Shown: positions 1,346 to 4,149 of the stretch, piece by piece | Layout: the number at the start of each line of letters is the position of its first letter | Numbering within the stretch: position 1 is the stretch's first letter | DNA from: Escherichia phage Qbeta | Direction: 5' to 3' (one strand) | Sequence record: FJ483844.1 | DNA length: 4,219 nucleotides | The notes under the pieces: generated by a model | Database searches by the model: none | The model's input: only the letters and a program-made list of their open reading frames with translations | What the model was told of the DNA's origin: nothing | Program-made: the position numbers and the translations under genes

Positions 1346-1747
1346 ATGGCAAAATTAGAGACTGTTACTTTAAGTAACATTGGGAAAGATGGACAAAAAA
1401 CTCTGAACCTCAACCCACGTGGGGTAAATCCCACCAACGGTGTTGCCTCGCTTTCAGAAGCGGGTGCAGTTCCTGCATTGGAGAAGCGTGTTACCATTTC
1501 GGTATCTCAGCCTTCTCGTAATCGTAAGAACTACAAGGTTCAGGTTAAAATCCAAAACCCAACCGCTTGTTCTGCAAACGGTTCTTGTGACCCATCCGTT
1601 ACTCGCCAGGCATATGCTGACGTGACTTTTTCGTTCACGCAGTATAGTACCGATGAGGAACGAGCTTTTGTTCGTACAGAGCTTGCTGCTCTGCTCGCTG
1701 ATCCTCTGCTGATCGATGCTATCGATCAGCTGAACCCAGCGTATTGA
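1346..1747 (+). CDS. cp: Major coat (capsid) protein, 133 codons including the initiator Met
   Basis: ATG at 1346-1348 (the track starts 2 codons earlier at a TTG, 1340). Product MAKLETVTL...IDAIDQLNPAY ends at TGA 1745-1747. Sequence is near-identical to Qbeta coat as recalled, with a few substitutions. Second cistron, as expected. Confidence 0.95.
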   Translation: MAKLETVTLSNIGKDGQKTLNLNPRGVNPTNGVASLSEAGAVPALEKRVTISVSQPSRNRKNYKVQVKIQNPTACSANGSCDPSVTRQAYADVTFSFTQYSTDEERAFVRTELAALLADPLLIDAIDQLNPAY

Positions 1748-2340: not shown

Positions 2341-2345
2341 AAGGA
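2341..2345 (+). promoter_or_regulatory. Shine-Dalgarno sequence of the replicase cistron
   Basis: Seen in sequence: AAGGA at 2341-2345, 8 nt upstream of the replicase ATG at 2354. It overlaps the upstream in-frame ATG at 2345, which argues against 2345 as the true start. Confidence 0.7.
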
Positions 2346-2349
2346 TGAA

Positions 2350-2369
2350 ATGCATGTCTAAGACAGCAT
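2350..2369 (+). promoter_or_regulatory. Coat-protein translational operator hairpin enclosing the replicase start codon
   Basis: Seen in sequence: ATGCATGTCTAAGACAGCAT folds into an 8-bp stem (A2350-T2369, T2351-A2368, G2352-C2367, C2353-G2366, T2355-A2365, G2356-C2364, T2357-A2363, C2358-G2362) with bulged A2354 and a 3-nt loop TAA (2359-2361). The replicase AUG (2354-2356) lies within the stem. This matches the established Qbeta operator architecture (8-bp stem, bulged A, 3-nt loop). Confidence 0.8.
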
Positions 2370-4123
2370 CCTCGCGTAACTCTCTCAGCGCACAATTGCG
2401 CCGAGCCGCGAACACAAGAATTGAGGTCGAAGGTAACCTCGCACTTTCCATTGCCAACGATTTAATGTTGGCTTATGGTCAATCGCCATTTAATTCCGAG
2501 TCCGAGTGTATTTCACTCGGTCCGAAATTCGACGAAACCCCGGACAACTTTAGGATAAATTATCTTAAAGCCGAGATCATGTCGAAGTATGACGATTTCA
2601 GCCTAGGTATTGATACCGAAGCTGCTGCATGGGAGAAGTTCCTAGCAGCAGAGGCTGAATGTGCTTTAACGAACGCTCGTCTCTATAGGCCTAACTACAG
2701 TGAGGATTTCAATTTCTCACTGGGCGAGTCATGTATTCACATGGCTCGTAGAAAAATAGTTAAGCTAATAGGAGACGCGCCGTCCGTTGAGGGTATGCTG
2801 CGTCACTGCCGTTTTTCCGGTGGTGCTACAACAACGAATAACCGTTCATACGGTCATCCGTCCTTCAAGTTTGCGCTTCCACAAGCGTGTACGCCTCGGG
2901 CTTTGAAGTATGTTCTGGCTCTTAGAGCCTCTACGCACTTCGATATCAGAGTTTCTGATATTAGCCCTTTTAATAAAGCAGTTACTGTACCAAAGAACAG
3001 TAAAACCGATCGCTGTATCGCTATCGAACCCGGTTGGAATATGTTTTTTCAACTAGGTATCGGTGGCATCTTACGCGACCGGCTGCGTTGCTGGGGTATC
3101 GATCTGAATGATCAGACGATAAACCAGCGTCGCGCTCACGAAGGCTCTGTTACTAATAACTTAGCAACAGTTGATCTCTCAGCGGCAAGCGATTCTATAT
3201 CTCTTGCTCTCTGCGAGCTCTTGTTGCCTCCAGGGTGGTTTGAAGTCCTTATGGACCTTCGATCACCTAAGGGGCGATTGCCTAACGGTAGTGTCGTTAC
3301 TTATGAGAAGATTTCTTCCATGGGTAACGGTTACACATTCGAACTCGAGTCGCTTATTTTTGCTTCTCTTGCTCGTTCCGTTTGTGAGATACTGGACTTA
3401 GACTCATCTGAGGTCACTGTCTACGGAGACGACATTATTTTGCCGTCCTGTGCAGTCCCTGCTCTTCAGGAAGTCTTCAAGTATGTTGGTTTTACTACCA
3501 ATACTAAAAAGACCTTTTCCGAAGGGCCGTTCAGAGAGTCGTGCGGTAAGCACTACTATTCTGGCGTAGATGTTACTCCCTTTTACATACGCCGCCGCAT
3601 AGTGAGTCCTGCCGATTTAATATTGGTTTTGAATAACCTATATCGGTGGGCCACGATTGACGGCGTATGGGATCCTAGGGCCCATTCCGTGTACCTCAAG
3701 TATCGTAAGTTGCTGCCTAAACAGCTGCAGCGTAATACTATACCTGATGGTTACGGTGATGGCGCCCTCGTCGGATCGGTCCTGATCAATCCATTCGCGA
3801 AAAACCGCGGGTGGATCCGGTATGTACCGGTGATCATTGACCACACAAGGGACCGAGAGCGCACTGAGCCGGGGTCATATCTCTATGATCTCTTCTCTCG
3901 CTGTTTCTCGGAAAGTAACGATGGGTTGCCCCTAAGGGGTCCGTCGAGTTGCGATTCTATATATCGGTTTGCCGTTGACCAACTTATATGTAAGAGCAAT
4001 CCTACAAAAGTAAGCAGATCTACTGGGAAATTTGATATACAGTATATCGCGTGCAGTAGCCGTGTTCTGGCACCCTACGGGGTTTTCCAGGGCACGAAGG
4101 TTATGCCTCTACACGAGGCATAA
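2354..4123 (+). CDS. rep: RNA-dependent RNA polymerase, replicase beta subunit (589 aa)
   Basis: ATG at 2354 (track starts 3 codons earlier at ATG 2345), stop TAA at 4121-4123. N-terminus MSKTASSRNSLSAQLRRAANTRIEVEG matches Qbeta replicase as recalled. Canonical RdRp catalytic YGDD motif encoded at 3422-3433; motif-A-like VDLSAASD upstream. Third cistron as expected. Confidence 0.95.
   Translation: MSKTASSRNSLSAQLRRAANTRIEVEGNLALSIANDLMLAYGQSPFNSESECISLGPKFDETPDNFRINYLKAEIMSKYDDFSLGIDTEAAAWEKFLAAEAECALTNARLYRPNYSEDFNFSLGESCIHMARRKIVKLIGDAPSVEGMLRHCRFSGGATTTNNRSYGHPSFKFALPQACTPRALKYVLALRASTHFDIRVSDISPFNKAVTVPKNSKTDRCIAIEPGWNMFFQLGIGGILRDRLRCWGIDLNDQTINQRRAHEGSVTNNLATVDLSAASDSISLALCELLLPPGWFEVLMDLRSPKGRLPNGSVVTYEKISSMGNGYTFELESLIFASLARSVCEILDLDSSEVTVYGDDIILPSCAVPALQEVFKYVGFTTNTKKTFSEGPFRESCGKHYYSGVDVTPFYIRRRIVSPADLILVLNNLYRWATIDGVWDPRAHSVYLKYRKLLPKQLQRNTIPDGYGDGALVGSVLINPFAKNRGWIRYVPVIIDHTRDRERTEPGSYLYDLFSRCFSESNDGLPLRGPSSCDSIYRFAVDQLICKSNPTKVSRSTGKFDIQYIACSSRVLAPYGVFQGTKVMPLHEA
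2975..2981 (+). other. Internal partner site of a candidate long-range pseudoknot with the 3-prime-terminal hairpin loop
   Basis: Seen in sequence: AAAGCAG (2975-2981) is the exact reverse complement of CTGCTTT (4197-4203) in the loop of the 3-prime-terminal hairpin. A possible eighth pair is U2974-G4204 (G-U). Qbeta has a known long-range pseudoknot between its 3-prime hairpin loop and a site roughly 1.2 kb upstream that is needed for replication. Confidence 0.65.
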
Positions 4124-4131
4124 CCTGGGAG

Positions 4132-4148
4132 GGCGCCACTATGGCGCC
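4132..4148 (+). other. 3-prime UTR hairpin (GGCGCC stem, ACTAT loop)
   Basis: Seen in sequence: GGCGCC (4132-4137) and GGCGCC (4143-4148) are mutually complementary (palindromic 6-mer) around a 5-nt loop. Confidence 0.6.
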
Positions 4149-4149
4149 T

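Follow-up and report, generated by a model that had tools for sequence, protein, structure and literature searches.

What function does the hairpin that covers the start of the replicase gene serve in this phage, and how much of that function can be read from its sequence, its conservation and its likeness to elements already characterised? The window analysed here, by which we mean the whole stretch of 4219 nt, is a complete Qbeta-like genome (Qubevirus durum) with the allolevivirus gene order A2 / coat / A1 / replicase. The coat and replicase genes lie on the plus strand. The ORF list places the maturation/lysis gene A2 at 62–1324, the end of the read-through A1 frame at 2335 and the replicase (beta subunit) frame, 589 codons plus stop, at 2354–4123; the coat protein gene (133 aa) occupies 1346–1747. 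Full-length megablast matches among phage records were to Qbeta-like genomes only. The closest was strain VK (FJ483843) with 93.3% identity, while laboratory Qbeta was 92.2% and M11/MX1 about 76% identical to the window. Judged by this comparison, with at most 93.3% identity to any record searched, the window genome is a distinct Qbeta-like strain.

The first-pass annotation had described a 20-nt hairpin at 2350–2369 with an 8-bp stem, a single bulged A and a 3-nt loop, and RNAfold returned every one of these features. For the isolated plus-strand 20-mer, AUGCAUGUCUAAGACAGCAU, the predicted structure was ((((.((((...)))))))), which is both the MFE structure and the centroid, with a stability of −5.7 kcal/mol and 61% of the ensemble. 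Its 8 bp are divided between a lower stem (pairs 2350-2369, 2351-2368, 2352-2367 and 2353-2366) and an upper stem (pairs 2355-2365, 2356-2364, 2357-2363 and 2358-2362), closed by the loop UAA at 2359–2361, in which A+7 is 2360 and A+8 is 2361. The bulged A is 2354 (A+1), the first base of the replicase AUG, and U2355 and G2356 are part of the upper stem. The last loop position (A+8) is an adenine, A2361, as a Qbeta-type operator requires. The minus-strand complement of 2350–2369 folds too (−5.7 kcal/mol, 8 bp, UUA loop, bulged U on the 3’ strand); this mirror hairpin has an A in the last loop position and fits the minimal Qbeta coat-protein binding rule on paper, which does not imply a function.

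The placement of the hairpin over the replicase start codon, with the bulged A as the A of the AUG, was likewise borne out. The 589-codon replicase frame begins at ATG 2354–2356, which is the homologue of the start annotated for the replicase in eight relatives (including Qbeta, where it lies at 2352, VK, M11, MX1, SP, NL95 and FI) and the only nearby ATG kept in 21 of 21 Qubevirus sequences. The AAGGA Shine-Dalgarno noticed just upstream is present at 2341–2345, 8 nt before the AUG, within a Shine-Dalgarno region AAGGAUG (2341–2347, plus strand) that was read directly from the sequence; relatives carry purine-rich AAGGAG or AAGGAU at this position. Two other ATGs lie close by. ATG 2345 is in frame with the replicase and overlaps the Shine-Dalgarno, and ATG 2350, which is out of frame, begins a mini-ORF with the codons AUG CAU GUC UAA, in which the operator loop serves as the stop codon. 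These two ATGs are found in Qbeta-like strains only and are absent from M11, MX1 and group IV. We rejected each of them as the replicase start because neither is conserved beyond the Qbeta-like strains. For annotation, the replicase is anchored at 2354 and not at the in-frame ATG 2345.

The hairpin sequence links the window to a well-studied element. AUGCAUGUCUAAGACAGCAU is quoted verbatim as the Qbeta RNA operator in PMC12724129, and the Qbeta coat protein has been crystallised with operator RNA of identical sequence (4L8H). An 8-bp stem and a 3-nt loop form the key structure for Qbeta coat binding, with A required at the last loop position (PMC12724129); Tyr89 of the two coat subunits provides the stacking surface for A+7 and for the bulged A+1 (4L8H; PMC11724954, PMC12724129). 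The window's own coat protein, the putative trans-acting repressor that would bind the hairpin as a dimer, is identical to that of Qbeta at 125 of 133 positions, with E values of 3.5e-79 to 5KIP and 5.5e-73 to 4L8H. Eight substitutions separate it from Qbeta: G9S, K16Q, Q17K, V20N, Q37E, V50I, T75S and S118D. Ser51, Gln65, Lys67 and Tyr89, whose contact roles with operator RNA have been described (PMC12724129, PMC11724954), are the same as in Qbeta, and V50I adjoins the pocket residue Ser51. That coat-protein dimers repress replicase translation, as the first reading of this locus had proposed, is supported by homology and literature, namely the identical operator, its homologous position and the near-identical coat protein. 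By analogy with Qbeta, where both properties are known for the identical RNA, the coat protein of this strain would be expected to bind the hairpin and to repress the replicase.

We asked how much of the fold chance could account for. The isolated fold is only modestly unusual: its stability relative to shuffles gave z = −2.41, and 7 of 200 shuffles were as stable. The exact architecture of the operator, with G-U pairs allowed, was found four times in the window against 2.0 ± 1.6 times in dinucleotide shuffles, and the fold is therefore not rare in the genome. The register, on the other hand, is unusual, since chance would place the bulge precisely on the A of a given AUG at a rate of about 2/4200. 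Chance does not account for the register, for the way the hairpin is conserved, or for its sequence identity to an element already characterised.

Prediction in longer contexts gave a consistent picture, with one exception. The hairpin was predicted for the 20-mer alone, at ±100 and ±150 nt, in a 1.4-kb context and in the whole genome, and was absent from the fold of 2300–2420. The whole-genome MFE structure contains it exactly, its eight pairs have P = 0.84–0.999 in the 1.4-kb context, and the upper stem reaches P = 0.97–0.98 at ±100 and ±150 nt. Across the genus, upper-stem P was at least 0.97 in eight of nine complete Qubevirus genomes. In the 121-nt fold (2300–2420) the operator hairpin is lost and 2309–2322 pairs with the operator halves instead. 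Qbeta, VK, HL4-9 and FrBurgundy keep operator P values of 0.81–0.91 even in the 121-nt context. We rejected the 2309–2322 pairing as the native state, as it was seen only in the 2300–2420 truncation and with the window's private U2311. This base, which is C in all relatives, creates a GCUGU/ACAGC pairing that displaces the operator in the 121-nt fold and is lost in longer contexts. A second private substitution, C2371 (U in all relatives; synonymous in a Ser codon), creates an AGGAU/AUCCU pairing that weakens the base of the operator when 36 nt are folded. This pairing was also rejected, because it wins only in the 36-nt fragment and is gone once 2326–2339 is included. U2311 and C2371 bracket a 59-nt invariant block, 2312–2370, which is the second-longest invariant run when the window, Qbeta and VK are compared.

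Conservation of the hairpin extends beyond the nearest strains. The identical 20-mer is found in 10 of 10 Qbeta-like sequences. In an alignment of 14 sequences (11 distinct), a covariation set limited to known group III/IV isolates, 94.3% of the cells at operator pairs were paired, versus 19–49% when the 3’ partner was slid. Double changes occur at two of the eight operator pairs, and none of 500 shuffles reached the covariation score. It is the two outer pairs that change: between groups III and IV one flips from A-U to U-A and the other from U-A to A-U, so that the lower stem AUGC/GCAU becomes UAGC/GCUA, AAGC/GCUU or UUGC/GCAA in group IV (FI, NL95, SP). The flipped pairs have non-coding bases on the 5’ side and coding ones on the 3’ side, where an Ala codon contributes its third base and a Ser codon its first; this Ser codon switches from UCU to AGU with the flip. 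In M11 and MX1, the lower stem is rebuilt with its 3’ half shifted by 2 nt in the 3’ direction (CUGC/GCAG). Their hairpin has 9 bp and keeps the 3-nt loop; the AUG gives its A to a pair with U, and the bulged base is now a C on the 3’ strand. Compensatory flips at both outer pairs and this register shift bear out the stem, from few independent events: the covariation amounts to perhaps two or three on a small tree, and its depth is modest.

Since the bulged A is absent in M11 and MX1, it is not a defining feature of the wider genus. As far as the aligned sequences indicate, what the genus keeps is an 8–9 bp hairpin with a 3-nt NAA loop over the AUG. The same two phages show that the element can do without the bulged A, despite its contact in the crystal. 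Witherell and Uhlenbeck reportedly found, in 1989, that the bulged A is dispensable for binding of the Qbeta coat protein. Loop positions +7 and +8 are A in 21 of 21 Qubevirus sequences; the paired synonymous sites at +9 (Lys AAG) and +12 (Thr ACA) never vary, and the synonymous loop site at +6 varies between U and A. The six pairs with no compensatory change, three of which never vary, lie in or beside the conserved M-S-K-T codons, where constraint on coding could be a sufficient explanation. SP differs from other group IV phages in that Pro (CCA) replaces Ser as codon 2 in three of three sequences (L005, L092, L093). A C.A mismatch in the SP upper stem lowers its predicted hairpin probability to about 0.3.

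Searches for further relatives and for covariance models added little. A protein scan of IMG/VR and a metagenome scan returned only replicases 35–46% identical, plus one Qbeta fragment (L009). An IMG/VR pattern scan gave 57 chance matches in DNA-phage contigs and three Qubevirus contigs, with no new operator sequence among them; one of its contigs, L104, is the same as L009. Rfam 15, searched over the whole window at E ≤ 1, gave no match, the operator included, and none of the Qbeta operator, the 3’ domain and the replicase-binding sites was represented. It appears that Rfam has no model for the operator element, and its null result is uninformative for that reason.

Just upstream of the operator, a local fold predicts a second plus-strand hairpin at 2326–2348 (core 2331–2343, CUUAG-UAA-CUAAG), whose 3’ strand covers the replicase Shine-Dalgarno. 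The stop codons of A1, UAG UAA, fall in its 5’ strand and loop. It corresponds to operator-like stem-loop 33 (Qbeta 2329–2341) of the virion RNA model (PMC8880383). The tandem pair of this hairpin and the operator has a local-fold stability of −14.3 kcal/mol (z = −3.07). Across the genus the upstream hairpin shows double changes at five of its seven core pairs, compared with two of eight in the operator.

The Shine-Dalgarno region is also predicted to pair over a long distance, 2334–2347 with the coat-gene segment CAUCCGUUACU (1593–1603, plus strand). This pairing, which is a prediction only, is part of the whole-genome MFE structure and has P of about 0.99 in the 1.4-kb fold. It resembles the coat-replicase coupling interaction of MS2. 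The same pairing is predicted in Qbeta, VK, M11 and MX1, and M11 keeps a perfect 12-bp complement to the Shine-Dalgarno region by way of synonymous coat changes. The segment spans the coat codons P-S-V-T, and the pairing is not kept at the aligned site in group IV. A second long-range coat-gene pairing is predicted between 1653–1661 and 2321–2329. Both long-range partner blocks are among the longest invariant runs shared by the window, Qbeta and VK. In these models the Shine-Dalgarno is predicted to be masked by pairings other than the operator, and the upstream hairpin and the long-range pairing appear to be two conformations between which the replicase ribosome-binding site could alternate. 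One could go further and propose a two-hairpin module, in which two adjacent coat dimers on the operator and on the covarying NAA-loop hairpin 2326–2348 would clamp the Shine-Dalgarno and the AUG, toggling against the 1593–1603 pairing, with the private U2311 and C2371 shifting the equilibrium. We regard this as speculative and rather unlikely.

These pairings bear on the explanation that competes best with a translational operator, namely that the hairpin serves mainly in capsid contact or packaging, as one stem-loop among many, with replicase translation governed chiefly by masking of the Shine-Dalgarno (through 2326–2348 or 1593–1603) and coat repression secondary. The Shine-Dalgarno is indeed predicted to be paired, with P of about 0.99, over long range or locally, the upstream hairpin covaries more than the operator (5/7 pairs versus 2/8), and the literature has translation of the coat gene opening the replicase start. 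The Qbeta virion has 33 operator-like stem-loops, among them the operator, which is bound to a C/C dimer, and 5’ stem-loops are the proposed starting point of assembly (PMC8880383). However, the two mechanisms complement rather than exclude each other, and A+7/A+8 and the paired synonymous sites are strictly invariant, in keeping with a specific contact by protein. We give this explanation very little weight. Still less probable, to the point that we set it aside, is that the apparent hairpin is a by-product of a conserved ribosome-binding site and the N-terminal codons MSKTAS with no selection on RNA structure: although six of the eight pairs lack a compensatory change (three of them never varying) and overlap conserved codons and the start codon, the isolated z is only −2.4 and similar hairpins arise about twice per genome by chance, against it stand compensatory double changes at both outer pairs, with one side non-coding and the other at Ala3/Ser1 (including the Ser UCU to AGU switch), the rebuilt, register-shifted stem of M11/MX1, pairing that falls to 19–49% in slid controls, and the binding work and co-crystal structure published for the identical RNA (PMC11724954, PMC12724129).

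We are thus highly confident that 2350–2369 is the translational operator of the replicase gene in this Qbeta-like phage (Qubevirus durum). The observations behind this reading are the fold, its position, its persistence in long contexts, its identity to the Qbeta operator, its conservation with some covariation, and the near-identical coat protein. Binding, repression and capsid contact would be expected in the window strain from the Qbeta literature. Early in infection the weak hairpin could open, allowing replicase to be made; in the literature, the replicase start first becomes accessible when the coat gene is translated. Without protein the hairpin is weak (−5.7 kcal/mol), and we infer that the effective block is the protein-bound state. 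As coat protein accumulates, a dimer would bind the operator hairpin, with A2361 (A+8) sitting in an adenine pocket of the dimer and A2360 (A+7) and the bulged A2354 (A+1) probably stacking on Tyr89 of two subunits. The bound dimer would lock the start codon in the stem and block 30S initiation, turning replicase synthesis off late in infection.

Once the particle is complete, the operator hairpin would be one of about 33 operator-like stem-loops touching capsid dimers. The Qbeta virion model names stem-loop 34, at Qbeta 2351–2364 (window 2353–2366), as ‘the actual translational operator’ and places it in contact with a C/C dimer (PMC8880383). The further suggestion that the hairpin nucleates packaging stands only in part. 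It agrees with the traditional view, but in the complete Qbeta model the operator, with its C/C dimer contact, shares its class with the other operator-like stem-loops, and Qbeta assembly has been proposed to begin co-replicationally at the 5’ stem-loops (PMC8880383). A simple scan of the window found other hairpins with 8 bp and a 3-nt loop at 4–23, 708–726, 1710–1728, 2205–2223 and 4131–4149, which coincide approximately with Qbeta stem-loops 1, 10, 23, 30 and 58. In the virion model, stem-loops 1, 10, 30 and 58 are operator-like and stem-loop 23 is CP-sandwiched (PMC8880383).

The operator is already well known from binding studies, genetics, a co-crystal structure and cryo-EM, and biologically the present analysis adds no new mechanism. 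A reading made from the letters alone correctly picked out a classic regulatory RNA. Two small additions can be made: a divergence of about 7% from known isolates has left the operator of this strain unchanged, and what maintains the hairpin across the genus is compensatory flipping and a register shift, not retention of the bulged A.

Among known systems, the Qbeta operator (stem-loop 34; the RNA of 4L8H) is the closest, with the same 20-nt sequence, AUG position, 8-bp stem, UAA loop and bulged A+1. The genome organisation of Qbeta matches that of the window, and the coat protein is near-identical. The two hairpins do not differ; the window strain has its own flanking U2311 and C2371 and its eight coat substitutions. 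The operators of the other Qubevirus phages (M11, MX1, FI, NL95 and SP) share the hairpin over the AUG, the 3-nt NAA loop and the upper stem UGUC/GACA, whereas they depart from the window in the flipped outer pairs of group IV, the 9 bp and 3’-strand bulged C of M11/MX1, and the C.A mismatch in the upper stem of SP. The MS2/R17-type operator (Emesvirus) follows the same logic, in that a coat dimer on a hairpin containing the replicase start represses translation. In MS2 the operator loop is of 4 nt, the stem is shorter and binding requires the bulged A. For this type, the literature has the coat protein recognising adenines in the loop and a purine left unpaired in the stem. The MS2-type features of a 4-nt loop and a shorter stem are absent from the window hairpin, for which RNAfold gives a 3-nt loop and 8 bp, and the window operator is of the Qbeta type, not the MS2 type.
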